Below are positions 96 to 47,042 of a DNA stretch of 64,000 nt, piece after piece; position 1 is the stretch's first letter, and the number at the start of each line of letters is the position of its first letter. Location: sequence record KU935715.1; one strand, given 5' to 3'. The stretch comes from Acinetobacter phage vB_AbaM_ME3. A program made the translations under genes and the position numbers. The notes beneath the pieces are model-generated. The model had not been told where the DNA came from. It worked only from the letters and a program-made list of their open reading frames with translations, and did not search any database.

Positions 96-377
96 TTACT
101 CATCATTTATCCTATTAGCTAGATCAATAATGTGATGGGCTTTCATAGCTATGTTTAATCCAAAACTATCTATATGTTTTAAAAGTTCATATGATACAGC
201 TTTTCCATTAGATACCAAATTTACCTTGTTTTCTTGTAATTCTTTTGGAAGGTAATTAGTACTAATAGTTAGAAGAAGATTGGAAAGAATAAGAAGCTTT
301 TCAGTATCATTTAAAGATTCAAATAATGTTTCTTCAATAGTAGATATAGTGTGTATTACTTTATCTTCATTAATCAT
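96..377 (-). CDS. hypothetical protein
   Basis: ORF track, 93 aa; no recognisable motif. Confidence 0.45.
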   Translation of the reverse strand: MINEDKVIHTISTIEETLFESLNDTEKLLILSNLLLTISTNYLPKELQENKVNLVSNGKAVSYELLKHIDSFGLNIAMKAHHIIDLANRINDE

Positions 378-17700: not shown

Positions 17701-20700
17701 CAACAGTTAAAGCACCACCACCAATATTATAAGATCCGAAACCATAAGTAGTCCCAGCTCTAACAAGGGCGACATTAGAGGCTATTAATCTATTTTTACC
17801 ATTACTAGTTAGATTACTAAATTGAGTATTAATATTACTGAATTTAGTAGCAGTTGAAGAATCTAAATTAGTAACAACATCAGTTAAATCTTGAATCTTA
17901 CCTAAAGCGACAGTATGGTTATTAGTAGCTAATGTCTTAGCATCAGTAGCTACAGTTAAAGTAGCGGCATTTGCATCACTAGCAGCTTTACTAACAGTAT
18001 TAATCTTAGCATCAGTGGTAATAAACTGTTTACTAATTGATGTATCACTTGCCCAAGGACTTGGATTATTATTATCACCTATTCTAACTTCCAACATCAT
18101 TTGCTCTAAATAAATAATAGCACCTGATAACCCAGTAGGGTTAGAAATTAATAAAGGACAATACGTACCATCAGCCGTAATTTCTACAACTTGACTAAAA
18201 CGTTTTAACGACGTATTAAGAACATGTCTTACACGAGGAGAAGCCACTGTACCATAGATATTAAAATCAATTGGCATACTAGCTAAATTAGATTTAGCAT
18301 AGAAACTAAAGATATAAAAACCTTTAGTTAAGAATAAATTTCTAGTTGTGTAAGCTCCAGCTTCGTTAAAATAGACACCACTACCAACTGAAGTAGTCGG
18401 AGATAAGGTATATCTATTTACTGTTGGATTTTCATAACTAGGTTCAACAACAAAGGTAGTCCCTGAAGTCCAAGGAGGATTAGGAACACCAATAGGAGCA
18501 GATATACTTAAAGGTAATAAATTAACACCACCATTAGGCATAGTAGAAAACTTAGTATCAATAGTTCCAAATTTAGTTGCTGTTGAACTACTTAAATCTG
18601 ATACAGTTGAAGTTAATGTTGCAATAGATGAGTTAGATGCAGCAACATCACCTTTTAATTCAGTTCTGTAACTTTCTAAACGATCTGCTACAGCTTTAGT
18701 TGCATTTGCGGCTACAGTTTTAGCATCATTAATCTGAGCTTGAGAATTGATATAATCTTGCTTTGTATCCTGATAAGCAGGAGTCCAAACAGAACGCTTA
18801 GTTCCCAATTCAATTTGTACGTTACTAATTTTAACAATAGAAGTAAAATTATTACCATTAGCTTTAACAGTAATATTATAAGGACCAACTGTTGAAGAAG
18901 TAGAACAAATAAATGCAAAGTCAGCTACTTTGTTTACAGCATAAGGAAACCCTGCTAAACCATCTTTAACATTATCAACATACATTTCCTCTACTATAAT
19001 TCCATTATTAACTCCAATACTAACATCATTTAAAGTACCAGATTCAACTTTAACTTTAAAAGAGATAACAAATTTAGTATTAATTGGAAGAACAGTATTA
19101 ACAAAAGTATTAATAACTCCTGATGCGTTACTTGAACTCTTAAAGGAGTAAGCATACTCTTCAGGAATAGGAGTAAATAATGAAGGACTTCCAACACCTA
19201 AAGCATCTTTAAAGATCCATAAGTTAGGAGATGACATTAAGTTGTCTCTCTTAAACCCAGCCTTTAAAGTATTAATATCTGTAGATGTTGTTCCAGCTAA
19301 ATTAGTAATAGATTCTTGAAGATCAATAATTGCTCCAGATACCTCTGTATCTAAATCAGATACAGTTGTCTCTAGTGTGTTTAATCTAGAAGCTGATGAA
19401 GCAGCACTAGAAGAAGTAGCATCTAACTGAGATCCAAGACGAGCTTGTGATGCGCTAACAGGTAATAAACTATAAGGAGATAATGATTGACCTTCAGCCC
19501 ACTTAGAAGGGTTAGGATTTGTTCCATACTGTTGTTCTAACATCATACGTTCAATGAACATAGGACGACTAACTGTAGATCCAGCTGCATTTACAACAAA
19601 ACGAACAGTATATTTACCAGCAGTAGTAACATCAAAAACTTTAGAATATCTTGTAAGAGACGTAGCTAAAGTAATGGCTGTATTATCTAAAGCATTTACA
19701 ATATTACTTGCGTCTCTCATTAAATTTACAGAAATGCTTTGATTCGTAATAGACGAATATGCATAAAAACTAAGAATATATTTCCCAGGGTTTAAATCTG
19801 TAAATTCAGCTACAAAAGTGCTAGGAGAAGTGGCTAAAACAACATTAGCTGCTTGGTTAGGATCATACCTAATACCTTTTAGTCCTGTAACGATTGTACT
19901 GTCATATAAAGCAATAGTGTCTGTACTACCTGAAGGATAGAAATTACTTACATCTACAGGATTAGTAACTTTACTACTTAGTAAATTAATTCCAGAGTTA
20001 GGAACTGTAGTGAATTGAGTAGTAAGTCCAGAAATTTGATTAGCACTAGCTGTATCACCATCAGTAATTGCTTTAGTTAAATTAACAACAGTTGCGTCGA
20101 TCTTACTGTTTAATACCTTAGGCATTTCTTTATAGTCAGACCAATCAGTCGGCTTATTACCTAATTCAATCTTCCATCGACTAATGATTAAACCACCATT
20201 AATAGAGTCAGTATGAAACTGAATATTAGGTACAATATCAGTTGTTAAAGGAGTAGTTAAATTAATAACTTTATAGTATTGACACCAACCACCAGAAGAT
20301 AAATTTCCAATAACTCTATCAAAGTCTACATAATTGTAATTAGAAGCTAAGAATAATCTTGGTTTTCCTGTAGGTACTTTAGTAGTATCAACAGCTTTAG
20401 CCCAAAAACTAAATACAATAGAAATACCAGTAGTGTTTCTAAAATTATCAGTAGTAACTTTTAAATCAGTATCAGCACTCCAATAATTAGTTATATACGT
20501 ATAACCTAAAGTAGTAGCTGGATCTTGAATAGTAAGCTTTAAATACCCTTCAGGGGTAATTTCTCTTAATAACCTAGAATTACCTACAGTACCAACACGA
20601 AACTTATCTGTATAAGCTGCTAAATTAGCACTACCAATAGTAAAATTGTCAAATGTACTTTGTAATGTATTTAGTTGACTAACTGCATTACCTACAGCAG

Positions 20701-23700
20701 TTGTTCTATTAGTAGTTTCAGTAGCAATTAATCCTCTAACAGCAACATCATTATTTTCAATCGTTGTAGTAATAGATGTTAATTGAGAACCAAAAGCTTC
20801 ATCAGCATTAGCTCTAGCAGTAGCTTCATTAGTTACAGCAGCATTAACTTGATTAATAGCTTTTGTTGTTATCCAACTAGGTTTAGTATACGCTGAAGTA
20901 ACTGTTCCTTGTTGTAACTGAACATTACGAATTTCAAGTGTTTTACCAACTAAATCAGTAGCAGCTACATTGTTATCAGATGCTACATATCTAATACCTA
21001 ATAAACCATCATAAGAATCTGAAGGAGTTCCAGTATTTGTATTTATAAGATTGTTAAGTCTTACAGTAGTCCATTTATTAACTTCTACAGTTTGTAGAAA
21101 ATTAGCAATCGGATTTGCTTGTCCATAGATGTAAACAAAAACTCTAATCTTAGAGTATGCAGATTTAATTTCAAAAGAAACAGAATGTGGCTGTTCTAAA
21201 TTAATTTTAGACGGAAATTCAGTACTTTTTAAATTTCGCCATAAATTGCTAAAGATTCCACTAGATTGAGCAGTAATCGTTAATTTCTGATGTTGTAAAT
21301 CAGAAGTCATCATTTCTTTAGTAGCAGTACCGTAATCAGAACTACCTGAATTACTAAACCACCATAAATTATCTGTCCCTACTACATTACTTCCAAAAGA
21401 AGCTTGTAAAGAATTAACTTGATCAACTACAGTATCAATAGCTGTAGTTCTAGCTGTTCTCTCGTCTACAATTAAACCTTTTACTGCTACATCATTATCA
21501 TTGACTTTAGTAGTAAGAGCTTGAAATTGACTAGCAAAAGATGCCTCACTTGTTGTAATAGCTTTATTGATTTCAATAATAGAAGCTTCTAAATTACCAT
21601 TACTAGAGACCCAATCAGATGGAGCTGTACCAGTGCCTATTTGTTTTTCCACCATAATCATATCAACTAAGATATAATTATTGTCAGAGACAGCTTGATT
21701 ACCAGTATCACAATAAATTAAAAGATATCCACCTTCAGCTGGTACAGTATTAGGTACTGTAAGAACTGAAGAATATCTTACTTGGGTAGTCGTTAAAGCT
21801 ATTTCAGGACCGTTAATATACAAACCTGAGGATGCTCTAAAAGCAAATTTAAATTTAGTTCCAGCGATTCCTGCTTTAACATAAGCAGATACAATATAAC
21901 TGGTATTAGGTTTTAGTCTTAAATTATCATAAGTAGTTATAGTTTTAGCAAAAGCTAAATAACTGTTAGCTCCAGTCCCAGTCTTTTTAATCTTCCATTG
22001 TTTAGCAACAGAAGGATCTCTTAATGTACTAGGTTCTATTGTAGGAGTAACTGCATTAATTGTAATACTCTTAAGTCCTACAGGATCACTATATTCAGCA
22101 GCTAATAGGTTAACACCACTTCCACTAAAAGAACTCTGTAATAAACTTACAGACTGAGCTAAGGACTGGTCTGCATTGGATCTAGTTGTAGCCTCATTAC
22201 TAACTAAAGAAGACGTAATGCCTTTCTCTGTTTCAAAATCAGATCTTAACACTTCTAATAGTTGAGCATTACTTTCAATATCATTTGATAAAGCTTCTTT
22301 TTCAACTTGAATAATAGATCTAGTTTCAGTATCTAATGTTGTAAATTCAGTTCGAACTTGATCAATCTCTTGAGCTCTAGCCTGAGTCTCATCAGCAATA
22401 GCAGTCTGCAATGAAGAAATATTAGCATTACTGATAACTTCTCTATCTAATACATCGAAAGGAGATTCGATCCAATCAGTTGTCGCTATAGCATCTCCTC
22501 TCACTAACATCGCCCAATGTACAGTAGCTGTACCTGAAGTTGTAGCTTGAGGATAATAATAAAAATTAATTGTTGAAAAATTATTAGTTGTAGGAGTAAA
22601 AGTAGTCTTAAATACCTTCCTTACACTTCCTTTAGTAGTTGTACTAAAAGGAATAGCTACAGATGAACCTTGCCAACCTCTAATCTCAGCAGGAGCTGAA
22701 GGCTCAGAAGAAACATCATGAGTAATACATGCAATTAATGTATATTTCTCATTAATTACTATTGGCTCTCCAATAGTATATCCACCAATTAAATAAGTTC
22801 CAGCAGTACGAACTAGAGCTACATTTGACTTTTTAAGAAGGTTCTTACCAGCTGTATTTAAATTAGTAAAACTTGCATCTAATGTATTTAGTCGAGTAGT
22901 AATTGTTCCAACTTGAGAAGTTCTAATATCTCTTTCTTCAGCAATTAATCCTCTAACTTGAGTATCATTTGATGTAACAGTTGCACTAAGAGCTTCAACA
23001 GTACTAGCTGTAGCAGCACTTTGAGTTGCAGTAGCATCAGCTTTTTCAATAACACTAGCTAAATTAGTTTGCATAGTGCTTGAATCAGTTTCTAATGTAT
23101 CAACACGAGCATCCAGTGCTGTCATTGTAGAAGAATTGGCAATGCCATCTTCAATACGAGTAGTAATTTCTTCTCTTACGTTTGCAAGTGCTGCATCATT
23201 ACTTGTTTTATAATTAGTTATATTTTGAAGTAATTGATCATCACCAGAGATACGAGCAGTTGCTTCGTTAGTAATACCATTTTCTAACTCTGCAATTTTT
23301 CCTAATCTATCAATTTGTTCTAATGTAATGTCTCCAATAAGATCATTAACATTATTCATAACAGTTGTATTATTAGAATTTATTTGACTATTAACATAAT
23401 CAATCATCTCTTGAGTGACAGTTCCAGCATCAATACGGGCATTAAGGTCGTCAATCTTTTGAGATAAGATATTAATATCTTCAATAGCTAAATTATCAAT
23501 TTTAGCATTCAACTGTGTTACAGCAGTTCCTACTTTACTATCAATAGCAGCATTACGATCAATTACTTCCTGATTAAGATCAGCAATTAATTGATCAGTT
23601 TTACTTGTAATAACCCCTTCAATTCTAATAAACTCTGAATTGTAATAAGCTGCCTTAGCATCTACATCAGCTTGAACAGAGTCAATTAAAGTATTAGCAG

Positions 23701-29663: not shown

Positions 29664-30440
29664 TTATTCTGCTTTAAACGTTTTTAATTTTTGTTCTTTT
29701 TGAATAGTAGGTTTAGATTCTTCTACAGGAAGAAAAATAAACTCTTCTTTATCTTTAGAAAATACATCAGGAACTTCGTCTTCTGCTACTTTCACATCAA
29801 TACCAGCCTCTTTAAGAGTACTAATAACTGATGAAAGAGAATCAGCAGCTAATTTAGCTTTAGCTTCTTCAACTTCTGCACTATCAAATACAGGATCTTC
29901 TCCAAATTGTAAAGTCTTAACTTCACCACCACAGAAGATATCTACTTTAATAACAGATTGAATTACTTCAACTAAAGGAGCAGTCTTATCGTAAGTTAAA
30001 ATAGCTTGAGCGATAAGACCACCAGAACCAACAGTATGTATAGAATCTTCTTTTGGAAGGTCTACAAATAAGTCACGAGTATATTCACTATCATATAGTC
30101 TAACAATGTCATGATTTTTAAAGATAACCATAATTTCAATAGGATCATCTACTTCTTCAATGTCTTCAACAGTAAAGTTTTCATTATGATCAATGCCAGC
30201 ATGATCAACACTGACAAACCATCTTAAAAATCTAGAAAAGTACTTAACAGACCCTGCTAGTGCATACATTGCAAACTCAGTTGGAAAATCTAAATCTTCT
30301 TTATTAAGGGAACGCTCTCCACTTACGAGATCTTCATAAACCATTCCAATTTTAACAACATGTTCATTTCCAACAGTACCACCCATTGTAGCTAACGAAT
30401 CCGCTGCTAAAACACCATTATGGTAAACACATACTGTCAT
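29664..30440 (-). CDS. HslV/proteasome-beta-like Ntn-hydrolase peptidase with acidic C-terminal extension
   Basis: 258 aa; MT-VCVYHNGVLAADSLATMGGTV (Thr2 nucleophile context), ALAGSV, TVGSGGLIAQA all align to HslV landmarks. Confidence 0.65.
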   Translation of the reverse strand: MTVCVYHNGVLAADSLATMGGTVGNEHVVKIGMVYEDLVSGERSLNKEDLDFPTEFAMYALAGSVKYFSRFLRWFVSVDHAGIDHNENFTVEDIEEVDDPIEIMVIFKNHDIVRLYDSEYTRDLFVDLPKEDSIHTVGSGGLIAQAILTYDKTAPLVEVIQSVIKVDIFCGGEVKTLQFGEDPVFDSAEVEEAKAKLAADSLSSVISTLKEAGIDVKVAEDEVPDVFSKDKEEFIFLPVEESKPTIQKEQKLKTFKAE

Positions 30441-37405: not shown

Positions 37406-38090
37406 TTAGTTCCCTATGGTACCCATAAGCATTAGAAATAAGTTGACAATTGTCTACAGTGATATGTGTATTATAATGAGTATGAGACCAGAACCAATAA
37501 TTAAACCCATCTAGGTTTAAATCATTAGTAAAGTATCCTGAATGTTTAGGATCTTTTAAATATGCGGGGTGACTACAGAGGGGAGAAGGAGGAAAGTGTG
37601 TAACGACTACAACATTGTCTTGATGACGATATTGATTGATATAATTATATTGTTTATTAAATAAAGTAATATAATCTTCAGGAGTTATAGTTTTCCCTTC
37701 ATTAGCTATGAAACGGAAATCAGGGAATCTACGGAAGGAGTCTTTTACAACATCTACTTCCCAATCTTCTAGTACATTACTTCTAAAATTAGTAAATAAC
37801 GTACCACCAACAAATGTAACACCTTTATAAATAAAAGGCTTATCTTCTTTTAAATAATTAATACCATGATCATCTAGTCGTTTGTAAACTAAACTGATAT
37901 CTTGATACCAGAGATCATGGTTTCCAGGAATAATAAGAACTTCTTTGTCTAAACTCTTACATAAGTTAACAAATACAATTAACTCTTCCATCCCATCACT
38001 AGCATCTCCACCATGAATAATTAAATCAGCTTCAGGATTAATATGATAGTACATACAATCATGAGTATCTGACATAAATTGAATTTTCAT
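37344..38090 (-). CDS. calcineurin-like metallophosphoesterase (Ser/Thr phosphatase family)
   Basis: 248 aa; IHGGDASDG, IIPGNHDLW, VVTHFPP motifs. Confidence 0.7.
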   Translation of the reverse strand: MKIQFMSDTHDCMYYHINPEADLIIHGGDASDGMEELIVFVNLCKSLDKEVLIIPGNHDLWYQDISLVYKRLDDHGINYLKEDKPFIYKGVTFVGGTLFTNFRSNVLEDWEVDVVKDSFRRFPDFRFIANEGKTITPEDYITLFNKQYNYINQYRHQDNVVVVTHFPPSPLCSHPAYLKDPKHSGYFTNDLNLDGFNYWFWSHTHYNTHITVDNCQLISNAYGYHRELIGDEAYKPNLLIEVYPNADK

Positions 38091-39739
38091 TAGAAAGGTA
38101 TATCTCTTGGATAAGGAGCAATATCATAATGGCTAGTTGTTAATTGTTTTAAAGACAACCACTCTTTAGTAACTTCTAAAAGTTCTTCATTAGATCTTAA
38201 AGGATGGTTATAAGCAAGTTTAGCTTGAATAACATCATTGCCTTTAGTAACTTCAATACAAGCTATAGGTTCATTAGATGTTTTATCATATACGCCTACG
38301 ATTGAAATCTCACCTGATACAGCTTTAGTATCATAAACAGCTACACAGATATGAAGTTTAGTTCCAAGATCTAATAACATTTGTGTATGCGTTGCAGGAA
38401 CAAATGAATAGTTTTCTGTCTCGTAAGCTAAAGCAAGTCTATCTTCTGTAAGAGGAATTTCTCTTAAATAATTAGCATCTCTAATGTTACGTTGCAATTG
38501 AGATAAACCATCATGTATTTCAGGAATAGATCTTTTTGGATTCATTACTTCTAAAAGAAGATGCTGTTGATCTTCTCTAAGAAGACTTGTTACTCTAAAA
38601 TAAAGAGAACTGATATCATTAAATATATAAGATCGCTTAAAATTAACAATCTTTTTTAGACTATATCCATATGATAGAAGAATCTGAATAACATCTACAC
38701 AACGAATGTCTATATTATGATTTGTTAATAATAATTCTAAATTATTGGGATCAAACAAGGAATCAATCTTTGCTTTCTTAAGTAAATGAAAAGCTTTAAT
38801 TCGATTATAATCTTGACTTAAGAATCGTTGTATTTGTTTATTAGAGGATCCAATAAATTTTTCTCTTAAAGCTCTAGTACCATATTTATCATAATGATAT
38901 TTAAGAGTAGAGTATTTAATATGAAGACTTTTAACAGGATTACCATTACCAATAACGACATTTAAATCCATCCAGAGAGGATTTCGTAAAGCTCTCATTC
39001 CAGGTCTAAACCCAGATTTTCTTAAAATAGGATAATTATATCTTACATTATTCTCTTCTAAAACATCTAAGAACGTATGGTATAGAGTAGTATCATGTCT
39101 AATTTCATTAGGTACTGCAAATAACTTAATATTATTTCTAGAAATTTTAATATTCCCATCTTCGAAGAAATAGAATAAATGGTAAGATTTACTCTTATTC
39201 GTTCTAATACCTATAGATCCAGTTTTCTTATTTAACCAACATTTCTCTAAAAACCTACTAACTCTAATATAGGTATCAGTTACTTTAACTTTATAATTAA
39301 AATAACTAGAGAAACACTTAACTATAGTTTTATACCGTTGACTTTCTATTACAGGTTGTCTTTCTTCAAGTTTATTAATACCATAACCAGTACTATTAGT
39401 TGTCATTGTAAACCGTTCAGTTATATCAGCAACAACATTAGATATAGAAGTTGAAACACCTATTTCACCATGACTATAACCAAGTAAGAGAAGCAAGTCA
39501 GTTTTTAAAATAGGCACAACATGAGAAGGAATTCCAGTTCTAGTAAATGGATTATGTTTCTCTGAATATTCAGCAAGTACAGAAATCCAATACTTTTCTG
39601 GTATATCTTCTAACAACTTTCTAGAATTAGAAGATAACAAATGTTTTGTATAAGGCTCGATTGGTCGTGCTTTTTCATAACCCTTTAAGGCAGCACGATT
39701 ATGATCTAATTTATTAGGCACTTGAAAGAGTCTACTCAT
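38090..39739 (-). CDS. large hypothetical protein downstream of the E1-like/small-protein pair
   Basis: 549 aa; no JAB HxH or UBC HPN motif seen by eye. Confidence 0.5.
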   Translation of the reverse strand: MSRLFQVPNKLDHNRAALKGYEKARPIEPYTKHLLSSNSRKLLEDIPEKYWISVLAEYSEKHNPFTRTGIPSHVVPILKTDLLLLLGYSHGEIGVSTSISNVVADITERFTMTTNSTGYGINKLEERQPVIESQRYKTIVKCFSSYFNYKVKVTDTYIRVSRFLEKCWLNKKTGSIGIRTNKSKSYHLFYFFEDGNIKISRNNIKLFAVPNEIRHDTTLYHTFLDVLEENNVRYNYPILRKSGFRPGMRALRNPLWMDLNVVIGNGNPVKSLHIKYSTLKYHYDKYGTRALREKFIGSSNKQIQRFLSQDYNRIKAFHLLKKAKIDSLFDPNNLELLLTNHNIDIRCVDVIQILLSYGYSLKKIVNFKRSYIFNDISSLYFRVTSLLREDQQHLLLEVMNPKRSIPEIHDGLSQLQRNIRDANYLREIPLTEDRLALAYETENYSFVPATHTQMLLDLGTKLHICVAVYDTKAVSGEISIVGVYDKTSNEPIACIEVTKGNDVIQAKLAYNHPLRSNEELLEVTKEWLSLKQLTTSHYDIAPYPRDIPF

Positions 39740-39745
39740 TAATGA

Positions 39746-39964
39746 TTACCCTAATACAATTATTTTAGTTAATCCTTCTTCATCTGGAATTTCTTTTATA
39801 GTTAAAATAGAACTAGACTTAGAAGGAAAGTCATCTTTATAAAAACCAATACCTAATTGAGATATTGGTTCTACTGTATCACTTTCAGTAACAAAACATA
39901 CTTCTGCTTGAGGAGTATGCTTTTTAATTTTATTTAATTGACGAATTAAATCACTTACATTCAT
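39746..39964 (-). CDS. 72-aa protein ending ...KIIVLG-stop; candidate ubiquitin-like/ThiS-like carrier
   Basis: Start ATG overlaps E1-like stop (TAATG); C-terminal Gly; small size. Confidence 0.45.
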   Translation of the reverse strand: MNVSDLIRQLNKIKKHTPQAEVCFVTESDTVEPISQLGIGFYKDDFPSKSSSILTIKEIPDEEGLTKIIVLG

Positions 39965-41046
39965 TACTTAACCAAGTTACTAATATGAGCAGCTTTACTT
40001 AATTCAAATAATTTCTGATGACTTTCACAGATATCATCAGGGAACTCACTACGAGATAAATCCCCAGCGAATAATACAGAAGCATGAGTTGGAAGTTCCT
40101 TCTCAATACTAACATTAATACCACAAGTAAATTTAATTTTACGATGAGTAATACAGTCAGCAATAGAAGTTTGATATAAGTTAGCTAAAATAGAAGCTGC
40201 CATATCATTACCATTAAACATTTGTTCTGGATTGTCAGCAGTACCTTCTGCATCAGCATCAGCACAAGAATGTACTTTTACTTCTTCCACATCATCAATA
40301 AACGATGGGTGATCCAAGGTATATAAATTTGTAAACACTGGATAAGATACATAACATTGACCGTTAAATAAGTTGATTCCTGCATTGAAATAAATCAAAC
40401 AAGTTTTCTTATAAATAACATAATCAATTTTACGTTTAAATACTTCATTATCTACAAGATTTACAATGATATCAGAAGATTGAATATAGTCATCAATATT
40501 AAAGAAAACATCCTGATCAAGAGGTTGCTCTAACTTAGATACTTTTTGATCATACTCTACAGAAGTACCATATAAAGGAATAGATACTACAGAGATACGA
40601 GGATAAAGATTATTATAACGTTCAGCAAGTACGTCAGATTTTTTCTGACCTACATCTTCATTAATGAAGTTTTGACGAATAATGTTTTTAGTTTCAACCT
40701 CATCATGATCCATGATAACAATTTCAAGATCATAAGCTTGTTCAGGACATTTAGTAAAAGCATCGTTATAAATCTTTAAAAGCTTAGGTAAGAACCAACT
40801 AGCAGTTCCTCCAGCTCCGAACATAACGACACGTGATTTACGATTTAATACATCCTTTAAAAGGTTTTTAGATACAGCTGAACGTAATTGAATCATTTCA
40901 ACAAAACCAACTGAAGCTGTTGCATCAGCTTGTAATTTGGTTTCGTCTTCATAACGATATTTAGTACGAATATCTAAGCTGTCATACCAGTTAAGAACAT
41001 TTTGATTGATTGACATTTGTTGTCTCGATAGTTGTATTGTCTTCAC
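39964..41046 (-). CDS. E1-like (ThiF/MoeB/HesA superfamily) adenylyltransferase
   Basis: 360 aa; nucleotide-binding RVVMFGAGGTASW (GxGGxxS) and IVIMDHDEVETKNIIRQNF matching the E1 D.D.VE.SNL.RQ motif; candidate Cys in VHSCADADAEG. Confidence 0.75.
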   Translation of the reverse strand: MKTIQLSRQQMSINQNVLNWYDSLDIRTKYRYEDETKLQADATASVGFVEMIQLRSAVSKNLLKDVLNRKSRVVMFGAGGTASWFLPKLLKIYNDAFTKCPEQAYDLEIVIMDHDEVETKNIIRQNFINEDVGQKKSDVLAERYNNLYPRISVVSIPLYGTSVEYDQKVSKLEQPLDQDVFFNIDDYIQSSDIIVNLVDNEVFKRKIDYVIYKKTCLIYFNAGINLFNGQCYVSYPVFTNLYTLDHPSFIDDVEEVKVHSCADADAEGTADNPEQMFNGNDMAASILANLYQTSIADCITHRKIKFTCGINVSIEKELPTHASVLFAGDLSRSEFPDDICESHQKLFELSKAAHISNLVK

Positions 41047-41641
41047 TTAATTTGACAATAGTTTTTGCAAATTCATCAGCGACTAGACGTTCTAGTTTTT
41101 CTGATAACTCATACATTTCTGGAACTTCTGCTCCTGACTCGTCTGCATATTTAATTACACAAGCAATAGCTTTGTCTACAAACTCAAGAGCAAGAGATTC
41201 TGAATACTTAACACCATAACGTACTTTATTGATTAAACCATAAATATCGTTAAATGGATTTTTTACTGAATAAAAGTTCGAAGAGTTGCTAGTAGTTGTT
41301 TTAGCTTTATTATTGGGATGTACCTTCCAGCCTTGAGCACTATAGTAGTCCTCATAATCACCTTCAGTCCAACCTGCATACCCACCAGTAGTTCCTGTTT
41401 TACCTGCACCATACATACCTGTGTACATAGGAGCAAACTCAGTGATATTAGCATAATCACTTTCTGGAACAGTGTAATCACTAGTAGCTGTAACACCTAG
41501 TTCATTTGAAAAAATATCTTCGATCTTAAGTTTAATTTCTTTACCATTAGATGCTGCCCGTACAACCATTTCAGGGAGTTCATTGTCAATTTTACCAATT
41601 ACCCCAAAGTAACGAGTTGCCGTTTCATCTTTAAGATCCAT
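40991..41641 (-). CDS. hypothetical protein with Gly/Thr-rich middle segment
   Basis: 216 aa; 3' end overlaps E1-like start by 56 nt. Confidence 0.45.
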   Translation of the reverse strand: MDLKDETATRYFGVIGKIDNELPEMVVRAASNGKEIKLKIEDIFSNELGVTATSDYTVPESDYANITEFAPMYTGMYGAGKTGTTGGYAGWTEGDYEDYYSAQGWKVHPNNKAKTTTSNSSNFYSVKNPFNDIYGLINKVRYGVKYSESLALEFVDKAIACVIKYADESGAEVPEMYELSEKLERLVADEFAKTIVKLSEDNTTIETTNVNQSKCS

Positions 41642-41788
41642 TATCTTTTAAGTAGTTCGTTAGACTACTTAGAGTAATCATTAATATTAACCTTATTATA
41701 ATAAATTTCAGTATAACCTCCAAAAATATTACCATTAAAATCTACTGATTTGTTAGATTTTTTAATATTTTGTTCGATTAAAAATAAA

Positions 41789-42232
41789 TCAGGCAATAAT
41801 CCGTTCAATAGTATCTCTTAAGTTTATTTCAACATCAGGATAAAATTTTCTCATTTCTTGTCTTAATTTATATAATCGTCTTTTTGGATTAATACTTAAA
41901 CCATATTTATAATAAATACTATTATTAATTTTTATTTCAAATTCGTATAAAAAGATAGTTTCTAAAGGTCTACGTTGAACTGTAGTTTTATTTAAAAATC
42001 CACTTTGGTTATTTCTAGAGCATGTAGGACAATTACTTCTAGATTGTAAATAGTCATTAGTGCGTGGTGTCCATGTGTTAGAACATTTTTTGCATTCTAA
42101 TTTTATAAATTTAGCATACTCTTGATAACTTCTAGTTAATAAAATGTATAAATCATCTTGGATAACTTTAGAAAGAATTGTAGAATATTTTAATAAATTA
42201 TAAAAATTAGATTTTTGAACTAATGCGTACAT
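41789..42232 (-). CDS. zinc-ribbon + GIY-YIG-like endonuclease segment (homing-endonuclease-like), possibly 3' half of a frameshifted gene
   Basis: CKKCSN...CPTC zinc ribbon; FLYEFEI...YYKYGLSINPKRRLYKLRQE resembles GIY...YIG...R...E. Confidence 0.45.
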   Translation of the reverse strand: MYALVQKSNFYNLLKYSTILSKVIQDDLYILLTRSYQEYAKFIKLECKKCSNTWTPRTNDYLQSRSNCPTCSRNNQSGFLNKTTVQRRPLETIFLYEFEIKINNSIYYKYGLSINPKRRLYKLRQEMRKFYPDVEINLRDTIERIIA

Positions 42233-42630
42233 GAACTAACTCCCTTAACAAAATCATGAAATAAGGGAAAATAAATATTACCACATGTCTTATGAACTAG
42301 AGCTAATGATATTTTAGTAGTAATTTTAGATAAATCTTGATAGATATATTCATACTCTGAAAAAGTTGTATCAATATAAAGTTTTAAATCCTTTTCTGAT
42401 TTAAAACGTCTTGATTTTTCATTACAAACGCCTGACGTAAGTTTACAATCATTACAGAATTTAGGCTTATTATAAATCAAATTAAACCAATTACTTATAA
42501 CTTCTTTTTGACAAGTATTACAAATTACTAGTATTTTAGATTTGACATTTTTATAAGGTTCTACTTCTCTAATAAATGAAAAACAATTTTCACTTTGAAT
42601 AATCATTTTATATTTTTGAATTTGAAACAA
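42220..42630 (-). CDS. zinc-finger protein, possibly 5' half of the same endonuclease gene
   Basis: 136 aa; CNTC...CNDC; 13-nt overlap with 41789..42232; immediately 3' of group I intron core. Confidence 0.4.
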   Translation of the reverse strand: MFQIQKYKMIIQSENCFSFIREVEPYKNVKSKILVICNTCQKEVISNWFNLIYNKPKFCNDCKLTSGVCNEKSRRFKSEKDLKLYIDTTFSEYEYIYQDLSKITTKISLALVHKTCGNIYFPLFHDFVKGVSSCTH

Positions 42631-42660
42631 ATCTACTCCTCTATATTTCTATAGATGTTG

Positions 42661-42915
42661 AGACTATATCTTCATCCTATTAAATAGGAGTTTTATGTTT
42701 CCCTTTAATCCGTTCGGAACCACTTGGCGGTAGACCTAAATTTAATTTAGGAATTACTAGTCGTTGAACCTTCCTCTATATTACTAGAGGCTTGGCTGCT
42801 GATTGTCCATTACAAAGAATATATTAATATATTCATCTTCTTTATTTTCAAACATTCACGCTCATCTTTACAGATCACGTTGTAGTTAAAGAAGCTTTAG
42901 GAGTTTCCAGCAATT
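42661..42915 (-). ncRNA. group I intron catalytic core (P, Q, P6, R, P8, S elements), IA2-like
   Basis: P AATTGCTGGAAAC (42915-42903), Q AATCAGCAGC (42804-42795), P6 hairpin CCTCTA/TAGAGG, R GTTCAACGACTAGT (42769-42756), S GAAGATATAGTCT (42673-42661); P/Q carry compensatory T/A changes preserving P4. Confidence 0.6.
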
Positions 42916-43383
42916 AATAAAATTTTGTCGACTACATTACTGTAGAAGGTGTCAATCTATTATTTAACACTACTGAAGAAAGCGCTCATATTGACGTGTG
43001 ACACCGTCATAATTGTTAACAAGAGTTTCTTTAATTATCTCTTTTCATTTCCTATCTAAAGTTTGGAAATAGTTCAGACTATCTAATCACCTTCAACAAC
43101 AAATATTTGCTTTGTTAAGGTGTTGGGCGCTCGTGGAGAGGTTATTGTTATCTTACTCACTCTCTAGTCGTTTAACGTTCTTGTCTCTTAATTAAGATAA
43201 GACAAGCTTCGCACAGTGTCGCCTACTAAGCTTCCACTGTTAGCTACAATATATAAATATAATAATGATACAGACTATTGGAATCTAACCAATTCATCCT
43301 AAGTTTACAAAGATGTTTCCCAACATTCTAAGCTCTTGGGGCGTTCACCTTTCACCAAGTCTGCATTACGAATTATCTCGGAT

Positions 43384-43461
43384 TGGTAGGCCTTATGGGA
43401 TTCTAACCCATGATCTCACAAGTTATGAGCTTGGTGCTTTAGAACGCTAAGCTAAAGGCCT
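43384..43461 (-). tRNA. tRNA-like element, anticodon CAT, non-canonical D- and T-loops
   Basis: Acceptor AGGCCTT/AAGGCCT + A + CCA, D-stem GCTT/AAGC, anticodon loop CTCATAA, T-arm ATGGG-TTAGAAT-CCCAT; lacks G18G19 and C56. Confidence 0.35.
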
Positions 43462-43477
43462 GTAATACCGAAAGAAT

Positions 43478-43562
43478 TGGCATCGCCTGGAGGAATCGAA
43501 CCTCTCACGTCCTTCCTGCTTTTTACGTACCAGCTTAGAAGGCTGGTGCAGGGGCAAGCGAC
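43478..43562 (-). tRNA. aberrant tRNA-like element, anticodon TCT, no recognisable D-arm
   Basis: 3' end AGAGG-TTCGATT-CCTCC-AGGCGAT-G-CCA; anticodon stem CCAGC/GCTGG, loop CTTCTAA; 5' acceptor GTCGCTT with two G-U pairs. Confidence 0.3.
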
Positions 43563-43666
43563 ACAGATGATTAATTTCATTTTGTAAATTTATATAAGTA
43601 ACACCCTCTTTTGATCGAGGTTCACCCAATTATTCGATTACCATTTCTGATAAAAGCCACTCACAT

Positions 43667-44101
43667 TTAATGGATATCCATAACTACAACTAAATCTGGA
43701 CTTGAATAAATCTCAGGAGTATTAGTATAGTTAATGGTTGCTGCGCTTACTTCTTGTTTAGGTACATGAATGAAGAAATCTTTTTTAATTTTATCCCAAA
43801 CAATAGCACAATAGACTTCAGATTTAATTGTCTTACTAATATTACGATAAAGAACAATTACTTGTTGTAATAATCCAGTAGGAATTTTTGGAATTTCAGA
43901 ATGATCAGGAGTAAAAGAAGTTTCACATTCTTTTGTCAAACCTAAAGCTTTGAAATCTTTTAATTCAGTAGGGATTACAAATGTACCAATAGGAGACTTA
44001 CGTTGCTGAAAAATACCATTAGCAAAGATTGCATTATGGATATTCTTACCTGATTCTGTATCAAATTTTTCAACAGCAAAAGAGTTAAATAAATCAAACA
44101 T
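43667..44101 (-). CDS. hypothetical protein
   Basis: 144 aa; stop is immediately upstream of the tRNA-like/intron region. Confidence 0.45.
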   Translation of the reverse strand: MFDLFNSFAVEKFDTESGKNIHNAIFANGIFQQRKSPIGTFVIPTELKDFKALGLTKECETSFTPDHSEIPKIPTGLLQQVIVLYRNISKTIKSEVYCAIVWDKIKKDFFIHVPKQEVSAATINYTNTPEIYSSPDLVVVMDIH

Positions 44102-44985
44102 TAGAAGTGTCTCCCAATATTAATAGCACCATCGCCACCATTAGGTTCAAAAATATCATCAAATTTGTAACCTAATACTGAACAGAAATAGTAAAGAGTA
44201 AAGATATTATGATACCAATCATGTTCACGCTCTGTAATAGAACGAATAAAGTAATTGATTGAATCTTCACTTTCTGCTAATACTTCTGTTAAAAATTCTT
44301 TAAAACCTTCACGATTTGAATTAACAAAAGAAGTTTTAACTTGATTACGAATACGTAAATCAGAGTTAAAATTAGAATTTAAGTAAGCATGAATAGTAGA
44401 TACTTGTTTATAACTATCTTTTGCTTTTAATAAATCACGATCAAAACTTCCATGCCAACAAACATTGTGATCAAAGTGATTACACAACATAGAAAGAAGT
44501 TGAGAATCATTACTTGGCATATTAATAATGTTAGTAGTAATAATTCCGTAGTTATGAGTTACATTACTAAATTCTGAATTATTTGTATTAACGATTAAGG
44601 CGCCATAATTTTTTAATTTAAAATTAGGGAAACGTACAAAATGATTTTCATCGCCATCTTCATCTTCTTCAGTAATATGGCAGATTCCGTATTTATTGCC
44701 TTCTTTGATATTTACACTACCACCAAATTGGAAAGTACCTGTAAAGGTTACTTCAGGAATCATGTATAAACGTTTTACTTGTCCATTCGCTACACATTCA
44801 CGAATTAAATAAGGACTAATAAAACCAGTATCAGCTTCTTTTAAACCATTAACAGAAGCTTTAGTAAAGAGTTCAGGAACAGATGCTACAGGAACACGTT
44901 TAATAACAGATTGACGTCGATCATTAGTTACACTAACCCGTGCATGTGGTTGTGAACTGTCTAACGTTACATTAATAATAGTCAT
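44101..44985 (-). CDS. hypothetical protein
   Basis: 294 aa; stop overlaps next start. Confidence 0.5.
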   Translation of the reverse strand: MTIINVTLDSSQPHARVSVTNDRRQSVIKRVPVASVPELFTKASVNGLKEADTGFISPYLIRECVANGQVKRLYMIPEVTFTGTFQFGGSVNIKEGNKYGICHITEEDEDGDENHFVRFPNFKLKNYGALIVNTNNSEFSNVTHNYGIITTNIINMPSNDSQLLSMLCNHFDHNVCWHGSFDRDLLKAKDSYKQVSTIHAYLNSNFNSDLRIRNQVKTSFVNSNREGFKEFLTEVLAESEDSINYFIRSITEREHDWYHNIFTLYYFCSVLGYKFDDIFEPNGGDGAINIGRHF

Positions 44986-45320
44986 AGATATTTCGATTTA
45001 ATTGTAGGAGTAGAACTTAAGACCATAGTGAATTTACTGATGTAAGCATCCATCATTGATGTATCAGGAGCTTGTCGTCTAGTACGAGAAGATGGAAAAC
45101 GATCAACAATATTTCGAATAGTTCGTTCATCAACATCTGCATATCCATTAAGAATGCTTTCAACAAATTCAGGAATATTTAAATCTGGTCTACGTAATAA
45201 GGAGAGAACGTCAGTAGGAAGTTCTTGTGGGACTGTCCCATCAACTTCATTAGGAAACGTTTCAAATAAGGCTTCATTAATTAACAATTGTATGTACCTC
45301 ACGTCTGCTGAAGTAATCAT
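44982..45320 (-). CDS. hypothetical protein (may be 3' part of a frameshifted gene with 45277..45717)
   Basis: 112 aa; 44-nt out-of-frame overlap with upstream ORF. Confidence 0.4.
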   Translation of the reverse strand: MITSADVRYIQLLINEALFETFPNEVDGTVPQELPTDVLSLLRRPDLNIPEFVESILNGYADVDERTIRNIVDRFPSSRTRRQAPDTSMMDAYISKFTMVLSSTPTIKSKYL

Positions 45321-45717
45321 TTTCTCTTACAATACGACTTAAACGTTCTAGAGAATTTCCACGTCTTAATGATACAGGAACACGAGAATCAGAGATGTCT
45401 TTAGTAAGAAGATCTTTAATAACATTAAGTGTCATTGTTAAATGAGATTTCACTGTCAGTTTATTAGGAGGAGAACAATCATACAGATCTTTCATCACGC
45501 TATAAATAAAAGGACTATATGATAGATACATATACATAGTAGCTACAGTATCAATATCAGAATAAGGGATATCAAAAGCAGCTAAGGTTTCTTGAAGGGG
45601 ATTTTCACTAGTTCTATGTGTATTTAAATGATGTTCAAAAGTAGAAGCTTGTCTACTATTAAAACGAGTAAATATTGTAGCTAGTAAATATTTTTCAAAC
45701 GATTTATCAATAATCAT
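45277..45717 (-). CDS. hypothetical protein
   Basis: 146 aa. Confidence 0.4.
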   Translation of the reverse strand: MIIDKSFEKYLLATIFTRFNSRQASTFEHHLNTHRTSENPLQETLAAFDIPYSDIDTVATMYMYLSYSPFIYSVMKDLYDCSPPNKLTVKSHLTMTLNVIKDLLTKDISDSRVPVSLRRGNSLERLSRIVRENDYFSRREVHTIVN

Positions 45718-45811
45718 TTTATGTATAACCAGAGAGAAGAAAAAACAAAATAGAAAAAGGAATATATACTAATTTAGTATATATTCCTTAAATACTTAAA
45801 CCTTAATAGGC

Positions 45812-46009
45812 TTACGCAGCTTTGTTACCATCTTTCAATTGGAAAGTAACTTCATCACCAGTCACAACAACTTCAGCTTTATCAAGCTCGTTGTACATTT
45901 GACGGAAGATCGCTAAGATCTCTTGTGGAGTTTTGTTTGGAACAGGTTGACGAGTGATACCAGCAGAAGCGTAAGTTACATAATAAGTAGTTGAAGTAGT
46001 CATGGACAT
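45812..46009 (-). CDS. hypothetical small protein
   Basis: 65 aa; locally GC-richer. Confidence 0.4.
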   Translation of the reverse strand: MSMTTSTTYYVTYASAGITRQPVPNKTPQEILAIFRQMYNELDKAEVVVTGDEVTFQLKDGNKAA

Positions 46010-46019
46010 TTCCTTTTAA

Positions 46020-47042
46020 TTAATTAAATAGAGAAAACTCATCTAACACAAGTTGATTAATTTGAGAAGGTGTTAGAGAGTATAAAGTTTTAGTTTCGTA
46101 TTTTTCTTTCAAAGCTTTCATAAATAAACCAAGTTCTTTAGTTTCAAGTTTAGTAATTTCTTGTACCACACGACCATTAAACTTTTGTTTAACAGCTTGG
46201 CTAATTCTAAACTCTTCTCTTAAGATATTTACTTTGTCTTCTAAGAAAGGAAATACAGTTTTTAAATGATCAAAATGATCATAGGGAAGTTTTAATGAGT
46301 CTTTCGATAAATCAGGACGGGAATCAATATACTCTAAGAACATATTATAAACCTTTCTCTTTTTATCTCGAACTCTATTAACATTATTCAAGTTTTCAAA
46401 TTTATACAAACCTGTATAAAAATAAGGACTAGATGTTAACCAATCGAACATCTGTATATAAGTGTCAAACCCTTTATTAAATTGTTTAACATCTAATTCT
46501 AATAAATTTAAAACATCTAAATAATTAGTTGATAACTCTACTTCACCAAGTAAGTTATCTTGTTGATCTAAAGGTCGTACTTCATATGTTAAACCATACA
46601 TACCATGTTTAACCTTAAAGACGCCTTTAGATAGCCTTCCAATTAGATTACCTAAATCATTCCAACTAAGATAATTCTGTGTGTACTCAATGTACTGATT
46701 TTGAACGAATATTAAATCTATTTGAAAGGTACCTAATAAGAAAGATATTACTGGTCCGTTACGGAGAGCAATAATATTTTGACTACGTAAGTGTAAAAGA
46801 GTTTCAGTGATGGTGTTATTATTTTCTAATTCTACGAGGATGTCTAAATCGCCATGTGATTCTTTTTCTCTTACTGAGTCTATACATCTATACTTCAAAC
46901 CATTAGCTTCTAACATACATTTAACTGCATATAAGACACTAGGGTAATCAGTAACATGTAATCTTTTTAAAACATTTTCAGGATCTTTACTCTGAATGTA
47001 GGACTTAAAAGCATTTCCACCCATAGTAAGGGCTCCTTTCAT
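46020..47042 (-). CDS. hypothetical protein, possible nucleotidyltransferase fold
   Basis: 340 aa; GGNAF ... HGDLDILVEL suggestive of a Pol-beta-type G[GS]...D.D signature but spacing atypical. Confidence 0.35.
   Translation of the reverse strand: MKGALTMGGNAFKSYIQSKDPENVLKRLHVTDYPSVLYAVKCMLEANGLKYRCIDSVREKESHGDLDILVELENNNTITETLLHLRSQNIIALRNGPVISFLLGTFQIDLIFVQNQYIEYTQNYLSWNDLGNLIGRLSKGVFKVKHGMYGLTYEVRPLDQQDNLLGEVELSTNYLDVLNLLELDVKQFNKGFDTYIQMFDWLTSSPYFYTGLYKFENLNNVNRVRDKKRKVYNMFLEYIDSRPDLSKDSLKLPYDHFDHLKTVFPFLEDKVNILREEFRISQAVKQKFNGRVVQEITKLETKELGLFMKALKEKYETKTLYSLTPSQINQLVLDEFSLFN

Follow-up and report, generated by a model that had tools for sequence, protein, structure and literature searches.

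A probable PRTRC-type E1, E2-like and JAMM peptidase cassette with a putatively intron-split peptidase gene in Acinetobacter phage vB_AbaM_ME3

Ubiquitin-like conjugation in bacteria is tied to anti-phage defence, as in the cyclic-oligonucleotide-based anti-phage signalling system (CBASS) with its proteins Cap2 and Cap3, and in the Bil and Bub systems. The ParB-Related, ThiF-Related Cassette (PRTRC; NCBIfam TIGR03734-TIGR03742) is found on plasmids, on integrative and conjugative elements (ICEs) and in some temperate phages. Its annotated order on five plasmids is ParB, E, C, F, B, A, ThiF; plasmid protein B belongs to Pfam Prok-E2_D (E 2e-30), and PRTRC_C has 68-75 amino acids (aa) and ends in KG, RG or NG, sometimes with an extension after it. 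The function of the cassette is unstudied according to a 2026 paper (PMC13366799), and a literature search brought up no work on what PRTRC or phage E1/JAB modules do. The locus described here lies in Acinetobacter phage vB_AbaM_ME3, in a stretch of 64,000 nucleotides (nt) of sequence record KU935715.1 (the window). To judge from its sequence, it is probably a reduced and divergent phage-borne cassette of the PRTRC type, with E1, E2-like, JAB and ubiquitin-like (Ubl) components and with a 65-aa protein as the modifier. PRTRC cassettes and bacterial Ubl systems are already known; what is new is a version, widespread among lytic jumbo phages, that lacks ParB, has a poly-Ubl and is riddled with introns, and no description of a ParB-less, poly-Ubl phage version was found in the literature searched.

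All genes of the region lie on the minus strand. Read in that direction, they are a 65-aa PRTRC_C-like protein, a 146-aa open reading frame (ORF), two proteins here called Y and X, a JAMM peptidase in three exons, the E1, a 72-aa protein and a PcfJ-like protein. The components of the proposed cassette other than the peptidase are:

45812..46009, minus strand: 65-aa PRTRC_C-like protein, candidate Ubl, matched by a PRTRC_C hidden Markov model (HMM): MSMTTSTTYYVTYASAGITRQPVPNKTPQEILAIFRQMYNELDKAEVVVTGDEVTFQLKDGNKAA
44982..45320, minus strand: Y, 112-aa ORF ending ...KSKYL, overlapping the start of X
44101..44985, minus strand: X, 294 aa, with an invariant Cys176-Trp177; the positional equivalent of PRTRC protein B (Prok-E2_D)
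39964..41016, minus strand: E1-like adenylyltransferase, 350 aa from the ATG (Pfam ThiF, E 4.8e-16)

The phage module resembles PRTRC in that its E1 is closest to PRTRC_ThiF and its JAB protein to PRTRC_A, in the order E2-like, JAB, E1 with overlapping genes, in a small protein of about 65-75 aa ending in G-x-K-G/A, and in the common catalytic Cys of the E1. However, no homologues of ParB, E or F were detected in the phage module, and all of its scores lie under the curated cutoffs. The phage E1 carries about 65 additional aa at the N-terminus and the phage JAB about 180 at the C-terminus, X is highly divergent, and the module adds Y and, in the ME3 clade, the PcfJ-like and 72-aa proteins. The small protein of the phages is often a tandem poly-protein, and this version is carried by lytic jumbo phage. 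HMMs of PRTRC_E and PRTRC_F that were built for this analysis matched nothing in any phage locus.

Related loci are denoted by L-numbers, L016 being Bacillus phage vB_BceM_WH1 and L017 Salmonella phage Arash (OQ632216.1). In 50,697 phage records, megablast with the locus matched nothing, and tblastn gave 7 distant matches and nothing else. A scan of IMG/VR with the single sequence found no relative; only the scan with the E1 alignment as a profile succeeded, and it yielded 47 further viral loci, mostly on contigs of 100-300 kb, the ORFs of which were searched with local HMMs. A scan of genome contigs with the E1 alignment found no relative. The JAB gene stands directly before the E1 gene in all 47 IMG/VR loci, and it is itself preceded by an X- or PRTRC_B-type protein in 40 of them. 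The triad X-JAB-E1 is also present in Arash (gp248c, gp247c, gp246c) and in WH1 (gp214, gp215, gp216). Locus L001, on a 233-kb contig and with an E1 66% identical to that of ME3, has the order 106 aa, 294 aa, a 376-aa protein with a weak Prok-JAB match, ThiF and PcfJ. Arash gp246c and gp248c bear the depositors' label 'structural protein', which was given to unannotated proteins seen by mass spectrometry of purified particles; the same preparation also held many metabolic enzymes. The detection of the two Arash proteins shows expression, not a structural role.

The initial annotation of this DNA, made by eye from the ORF list, had identified ORF 39964..41046 as an E1/ThiF protein with two characteristic motifs and a candidate catalytic Cys, and all three points are borne out. 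The Pfam ThiF (PF00899) score is 59.1 bits, above the cutoff of 28.1; both motifs, GAGGTASW and DHDEVETKNIIRQNF, can be read in the sequence, and the Cys of HSCADADA is invariant in 19 homologues. The start of the gene is likely the ATG at 41016 (MSINQN...), as the relatives have it, rather than the GTG at 41046 of the ORF list, and the gene overlaps the end of JAB by 26 nt. Residues R124, Q125, K136, D199, N200 and C261 are invariant in the alignment of these homologues, and GAGGTAS of the Gly-rich ATP loop, DHDEVETKNIIRQ of the DxDxVxxxNxxRQ motif, KKS with the Lys and LVDNE with the Mg-binding Asp are kept across the family and align with Escherichia coli ThiF. In the alignments C261 falls on the Cys of the 'SCS' motif in six PRTRC ThiF proteins from plasmids and on Cys184, in 'NCR', of E. 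coli ThiF. The best NCBIfam model for the protein is PRTRC_ThiF (TIGR03736) with 56.4 bits, and the TcdA, ThiF, MoeB and SAMP-E1 models score far lower. The protein does not cluster with TcdA, the model of which gives 17.7 bits against a cutoff of 304. An E1 of this kind could also serve a pathway other than protein tagging, such as activation of a ThiS/MoaD sulfur carrier, MccB-type peptide modification or TcdA-type tRNA modification. That use is very unlikely here. The E1 profile does match MccB (26 bits), ThiF, TcdA and UBA3 in the PDB with 22-28 bits, over the nucleotide-binding motif only, and tRNA genes and a Thg1 gene are found nearby in relatives; but the ThiF and MoeB models, like that of TcdA, remain far under their cutoffs, no rhodanese, ThiG/MoaE or sulfurtransferase is present among the neighbours, and the association with a JAMM peptidase and an E2-position protein is strict. 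The top structure match of the E1 profile, at 28 bits, is PDB 9EGB/9EGC/9EGD, a 264-aa 'THIF-type NAD/FAD binding fold domain-containing protein' with 7-14 chains per entry. No paper was traced for these three entries in a literature search, and the protein may be a PRTRC-like E1.

Directly before the E1 lies a gene for a JAMM/JAB peptidase, the message of which would be spliced from three exons:

43670..44101, minus strand: JAB exon 1, 144 codons, ending ...VVMDIH; 74% identical to residues 1-144 of the L001 JAB
42966..43001, minus strand: JAB exon 2, 12 codons, SHVNMSAFFSSV, with two JAMM residues, the second His and the Ser
40991..41638, minus strand: JAB exon 3, beginning DLKDE..., with the Asp of HxHx7SxxD, a Gly-rich linker and a helical C-terminal domain

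This gene was overlooked in the initial annotation because two introns cut it into three pieces. The 216-aa Gly-rich protein, taken there for a stand-alone product with no JAB motif, is exon 3 of the peptidase gene, and the statement that no recognisable JAB or E2 partner exists was wrong, a JAMM peptidase and an E2-position protein being present in the same gene string. Exon 1 carries the JAMM Glu (KSEVYCAIV) and the first His and runs into a stop codon, which gives a 144-aa ORF (43667..44101). The intact L001 JAB (376 aa) matches the 216-aa ORF from residue 157 on, and a mini-exon of 36 nt supplies the 12 residues between exons 1 and 3, which form the centre of the JAMM motif. Joining 44101..43670, 43001..42966 and 41638..40991 in silico gives an in-frame sequence of 1116 nt coding for 371 aa, which is 90% identical to the intron-less L024 protein and identical to it across both junctions. 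The JAB genes of L023 and L024 have no introns; that of L011 is without intron 2, and its contiguous exons 2 and 3 read ...SHVNMSAFFSSVDLKDE.... After joining, the full E...HxHx7SxxD motif is present as SEVYCAIV ... DIH / SHVNMSAFFSSV / D. As in JAMM deubiquitinases such as AMSH, with which the joined product aligns as IHSHVNMSAFFSSVDL / IHTHPTQTAFLSSVDL, the upstream Glu is also placed. The joined product matches PRTRC_A with 57.6 bits (E 1.2e-15; exon 1 by itself gives E 0.0039) over profile positions 73-191 of 192, and Pfam Prok-JAB (PF14464) with E 6.7e-5 and 23.2 bits, just short of the cutoff of 25.

The two putative introns and the elements within them are:

43002..43669, minus strand: group I intron 1, 668 nt, with its group I core at 43052..43271
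43481..43563, minus strand: tRNA-like element inside intron 1, 30 bits against the tRNA-Sec model
43384..43461, minus strand: tRNA-Met(CAU) inside intron 1, 59.9 bits
43267..43365, minus strand: tRNA-Leu(UAG)-like gene of 99 nt inside intron 1
41639..42965, minus strand: group I intron 2, 1327 nt, with its ribozyme core at 42639..42975
42220..42630, minus strand: ORF of 136 aa in intron 2 with CxxC pairs, candidate homing endonuclease
41789..42232, minus strand: ORF of 147 aa in intron 2 with CxxC pairs, candidate homing endonuclease

The boundaries were set by the intron-less alleles, and they follow the splice rule, the exons ending in U and the introns in G. Intron 2 matches Rfam Intron_gpI with 81 bits (gathering score 50), and its P1 is formed by GUGUU/AA pairing with UUGACAC, which places the canonical U.G at the splice site. 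For intron 1 the local scan with Intron_gpI (RF00028) gave 29.2 bits (E 8e-6), and a 5-bp P1 pairing, UCCAU/GUGGA, was proposed by eye; the tRNAs stand upstream of this weak core. It would be unusual for tRNA genes to be nested in a group I intron, and to our knowledge there is no precedent for tRNA-like genes inside such an intron. Processing of the tRNAs would cut the intron RNA, which puts into question whether and how splicing proceeds. In comparison with the T4 td, nrdB and nrdD introns, intron 2 is alike in its full Rfam match, the U.G pair at the 5' splice site, the ORF-bearing 3' extension, its presence or absence among close relatives and its insertion in a catalytic motif. Unlike those introns, intron 1 has tRNA genes instead of an endonuclease ORF and a weak core score, and the ORFs of intron 2 match no known homing-endonuclease family, weak treble-clef zinc-finger matches being the only ones obtained. 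The two intron 2 ORFs share 13 nt, read in different frames, and could represent a single gene with a frameshift.

It has to be asked whether the JAB gene of ME3 is merely broken by inserted DNA, so that the fragments are non-functional and the module is decaying in this phage. The stop codon at the end of exon 1 would agree with this, as would the score of intron 1 under the Rfam gathering score and its three tRNA-like genes, but such decay is hardly credible: the three exons keep the frame and the catalytic residues, exon 2 differs from that of L011 by five synonymous changes with the amino acids unchanged, the joined sequence equals the intron-less alleles, and intron 2 is a bona fide group I intron with splice sites that follow the U/G rule. 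From the tRNA-Met on, intron 1 is near-identical in ME3 (window 42900..43560) and L011:1-620, and the first tRNA-like element is of other sequence in L011. Such near-identity beside a 36-nt exon with five synonymous differences suggests that the intron has spread horizontally in recent times. No copy of intron 1 turned up when viral and metagenome contigs were searched with exact patterns. The JAB gene is split into two HMM-matching fragments, 0.3-2.2 kb apart, in the seven IMG/VR loci L028, L031, L033, L038, L048, L051 and L064; insertions in the JAB gene therefore recur across lineages. The E1 gene is split in L010, L012-L014, L023, L004/L005, L027, L028, L038-L040 and L042, between ...DHDxV and ETKN..RQNF within the adenylation motif, with gaps of about 0.2-2.5 kb, and an ORF inside the L010 gap has a faint match to LAGLIDADG. 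In ME3 the E1 is intact and the JAB split, and in L023 it is the other way round. That mobile introns of many relatives lie within catalytic motifs, of either JAB or E1, fits conserved genes that are in use.

Protein X, which occupies the E2 position, is 100% identical to UniProt A0A172Q0C7 and has N-H-F-D before its invariant Cys-Trp. It gave no direct match to Pfam or NCBIfam, and hhalign of X with PRTRC_B aligned the N-x5-6-C-x-G motif alone, at a probability of 1-2%. The connection is made by intermediates: at least 13 X-position proteins of other viral loci match both the HMM of ME3-type X and that of plasmid PRTRC_B (E<=1e-3 in a database of 2483 ORFs), for example those of L034 (6e-8 and 3e-7, respectively) and L062 (3e-11 and 5e-6), and the X-position protein of L060 matches the PRTRC_B HMM alone (1e-11). 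The AlphaFold2 (AF2) model of X, with a pLDDT of 65.6, consists of a helix, four strands, a loop and helices; it is unreliable near the Cys and gave no match to the UBC fold. X is a probable divergent E2-like protein and a candidate carrier. A small ORF lies directly upstream of X in all lineages, and in ME3 this is Y. Its C-terminal end is kept as [KRSDGT]-[YF]-[LIV] and looks like a docking tail. Y proteins (60-136 aa) are otherwise poorly conserved; they end in [KRS]-Y-[LI] in the ME3-like phages and, in many others, in D-F-[IV] or F-[YF]-I behind an acidic stretch. An acidic tail with aromatic residues likewise ends the plasmid PRTRC_E proteins.

The 65-aa protein is matched by an HMM of six plasmid PRTRC_C proteins with E 2.6e-5 in a search of 4137 ORFs (all of at least 35 aa), and hhalign of the ME3-type units with PRTRC_C gave E 5.5e-4 and a probability of 30%. 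It aligns with PRTRC_C from end to end, including the C-terminal G-x-K-[GAN], its own end ...DGNKAA standing against ...G-x-K-G in PRTRC_C. Read by eye from the sequence, its pattern is strand, strand, helix, strand, strand, tail. L023, L006, L001, L008, L002 and L004 carry an orthologue at the corresponding place, and one is present in every lineage with sufficient upstream flank; Arash, WH1 and 12 of the 47 IMG/VR loci also have PRTRC_C-like homologues close to the triad. In related phages the gene contains tandem units, from 2 to at least 5 in number. L001, L008 and L069 have two units each, WH1 gp211 has a period of 171 nt with at least 3.6 copies up to the edge of the locus, and ORFs of 363-368 aa in L046 and L061 match too. 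The unit boundaries fall directly after K-A or K-G, and such an arrangement gives the JAMM peptidase an obvious job. The ME3 gene is a single unit with one extra Ala. The relatives' head-to-tail repeats, with their boundaries right after the conserved C-terminal motif, are reminiscent of polyubiquitin precursors; unlike these, the small protein has no sequence relation to ubiquitin, its processing in the phages is a prediction, and in ME3 there is the single unit plus Ala in place of repeats. Tandem Ubl repeats have been described for the 6e operon type (PMC1779556).

In Arash, a 66-aa PRTRC_C-like ORF ending ...RRTGTKG is located at L017:107-307, in a frame that differs from that of the annotated gp251c (locus 102..320); the deposited annotation of gp251c probably uses the wrong frame. 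WH1 gp211 (L016:1-671) is poly-Ubl-like, with 57-aa units ending GTKG, and its depositors' label is 'virion structural protein'. If this label rests on virion proteomics, it would hint that the Ubl is attached to the particles or packaged in them. Behind the ME3 gene there is a further element:

45757..45789, minus strand: terminator-like hairpin with a 15-bp stem and a T run, 23 nt past the stop codon of the 65-aa gene

This strong hairpin could be a partial terminator and so give more Ubl relative to the enzymes.

The initial annotation had chosen another small protein as the modifier, namely the one encoded directly after the E1:

39746..39964, minus strand: 72-aa ORF ending ...IIVLG, its start overlapping the E1 stop

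Its observation that the E1 stop overlaps, as TAATG, the start of this Gly-terminal ORF is correct, and its general reading of an E1-based Ubl module in a phage stands and is strengthened by the JAMM peptidase, the E2-position Cys protein and the PRTRC_C-like protein. The specific pairing of the E1 with the 72-aa protein is weakly supported, the distribution of the latter being narrow. The ORF is a real gene: its 7 homologues all end in [IL][IV]LG, one of them with an extra Lys, and the ratio of nonsynonymous to synonymous substitution rates (dN/dS) is about 0.25 against close relatives. The family is present in the ME3-like clade, the L006 clade and L027, with 4 matches among 1.84 billion representative proteins and an occurrence in 1 of the 47 further IMG/VR loci. 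It is absent within 8 kb of the E1 in the sister clades L001 and L008 and in L002 and L004, and absent near the E1 in Arash and WH1, all of which keep X-JAB-E1. Pfam, PHROGs, NCBIfam and PADLOC gave no match to the 72-aa protein, the profile search of the PDB produced nothing but a chance match to an HSP90 motif, and no similarity to PRTRC_C, ThiS or MoaD-type profiles was seen; hhalign with a protein from the PRTRC_C position gave a probability of 0.6%. The AF2 model is poor (pLDDT 58.2) and opens with a helix, and the Gly comes right after a hydrophobic strand with no flexible tail.

It is doubtful, on this evidence, that the 72-aa protein is the Ubl or peptide substrate whose C-terminal Gly is adenylated by the co-translated E1. 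Such a role would agree with the stop/start overlap (the L006 orthologue overlaps its E1 by 11 nt), with the terminal Gly in 7 of 7 family members, where the one trailing Lys could be removed by JAB, with a size that fits PRTRC_C, and with the purifying selection on the gene. The patchy distribution, the unlikeness to the known carrier profiles and the features of the model speak against it, as does the better-conserved PRTRC_C-like candidate in the same gene string. The initial choice of the Ubl was probably the wrong one, and the 72-aa protein is most likely an add-on of the ME3 lineage, not the conserved modifier. There is an outside chance that it serves as a lineage-specific second substrate or regulator, a role that its conserved terminal Gly and its overlap with the end of the E1 gene keep in play.

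With the 65-aa protein as the favoured modifier, a sequence of reactions can be proposed from the domain identities, gene order, intron structure and co-occurrence observed here and from the established enzymology of E1, E2 and JAMM proteins. The JAMM peptidase would trim the small protein to ...G-N-K-A, which in ME3 means the removal of one extra Ala, and would cut the tandem poly-proteins of the relatives between units. The E1 with ATP would adenylate the C-terminus of the small protein and then take the tag onto Cys261. From there the tag would move to Cys176 of X and then to Lys residues of host or phage targets, and the JAMM peptidase could also reverse the mark. Several points weigh against the PRTRC-type reading. 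The E1 score of 56.4 bits against PRTRC_ThiF falls under the curated cutoff of 144.75, and the 57.6 bits of the spliced JAB are below the PRTRC_A (TIGR03735) cutoff of 101.8. The neighbouring ORFs scanned gave no match to PRTRC ParB, E or F. The C-terminus of the 65-aa protein in ME3 is Ala-Ala, not Gly, and the protein has no sequence relative in the PDB. A Ubl-type ORF lies within 5 kb in 12 of the 47 IMG/VR loci, a lower bound that is limited by flank length and HMM reach. Intron 1 scores under the Rfam gathering score of 50 and holds tRNA genes, and its splicing is deduced from the alleles. Finally, the whole class, plasmid PRTRC included, is without biochemistry (PMC13366799).

The defence systems named at the outset share several components with the phage module. 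The parts of Bil (BilABCD), Bub/6E and type II CBASS with Cap2/Cap3 are likewise an E1, an E2 with a catalytic Cys, a deconjugating JAB enzyme and a substrate that ends in Gly or Ala. They differ in being host-encoded defence, whereas the module described here is encoded by a virus, and the similarity detected with PADLOC is weak and local (at most 26.5 bits); unlike CBASS Cap2, the phage E1 and E2-like proteins are separate and not fused. A counter-defence role without a phage tag has to be considered in this respect, in which the JAMM peptidase would strip Ubl or CD-NTase conjugates of Bil, Bub or type II CBASS and the E1 would sequester or mis-activate host substrates. The weak local similarity of the E1 to PADLOC's E1-E2 defence proteins (26.5 bits) and also to 6A-MBL cap2_3, the intact, AMSH-like JAMM motif and the position of the module among early and DNA-metabolism genes are compatible with it. 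It is nevertheless improbable, as these enzymes are accompanied across lineages by a dedicated small protein, in many cases a poly-protein, and by a Cys protein in the E2 position, which fits a self-contained conjugation system, and the same type of cassette is found on plasmids.

The PRTRC-type reading can be extended beyond ME3, although only tentatively and with the balance leaning somewhat to the other side. Many large lytic phages (Acinetobacter ME3-like, Salmonella Arash-like and Bacillus WH1-like phages and dozens of uncultured contigs of 100-300 kb) might own a full ubiquitination-like machine of poly-Ubl, JAMM peptidase, E1 and divergent E2 that tags host or virion proteins, as a viral counterpart of Bil, Bub and CBASS; the 72-aa protein of ME3 would then be a second, newly recruited modifier, and JAB intron 1 a group I intron with functional tRNA genes. 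The locus suggests that ubiquitin-like conjugation chemistry is encoded by viruses too, in a form that is kin to the PRTRC cassettes of plasmids and ICEs. If active, it would offer a cultured phage-host system in which the function of a PRTRC-type cassette is testable, a possible viral tagging of host or virion proteins, and a prokaryotic-virus analogue of polyubiquitin processing. Public annotation is also corrected in three places: the ME3 JAB consists of three ORF fragments that no automatic call joins, the Ubl ORF of Arash is in another frame than the annotated gene, and the poly-Ubl of WH1 carries the label of a structural protein.

Further genes of the window that border or lie near the cassette are:

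46020..47042, minus strand: 340-aa ORF, 10 nt upstream of the Ubl gene, containing 'SHGDLDILVE'
45277..45717, minus strand: 146-aa ORF between the Ubl gene and Y, a conserved neighbour
38090..39739, minus strand: 549-aa PcfJ-like protein (Pfam PcfJ, E 1.1e-12)
8783..25042, minus strand: 5419-aa ORF, known from the genome announcement as the 'massive protein' ME3_104

The neighbours of the module are early and DNA-metabolism genes such as PhoH, PIF1, RecJ-like and phosphoesterase genes. A promoter scan of the locus found fewer sites than in shuffled sequence. The 549-aa protein, in which the initial annotation recognised no E2 or JAB motif by eye, is PcfJ-like and is 34% identical to its L001 orthologue; its gene adjoins the E1 in ME3-like clades only and is not adjacent to it in L002 and L004. 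The 146-aa ORF has no family match, and counterparts are found at the same position in L001 (165 aa), L006 (167 aa), L008 (165 aa) and L023 (146 aa). The 340-aa ORF was considered by eye to be a pol-beta-type nucleotidyltransferase, a candidate that was dropped since Pfam, NCBIfam and the PDB gave no match. The label 'HslV-like', given earlier to the ORF at 29664..30440 (minus strand), likewise found no sequence match in Pfam, NCBIfam or the PDB. The announcement of the ME3 genome reports the 5,419-aa protein ME3_104 and leaves ThiF, JAB and the introns unmentioned (PMC5000817). The G+C content of the window is about 30%, and its 2-kb blocks all have 27-35%, versus 40% announced for ME3 (PMC5000817).

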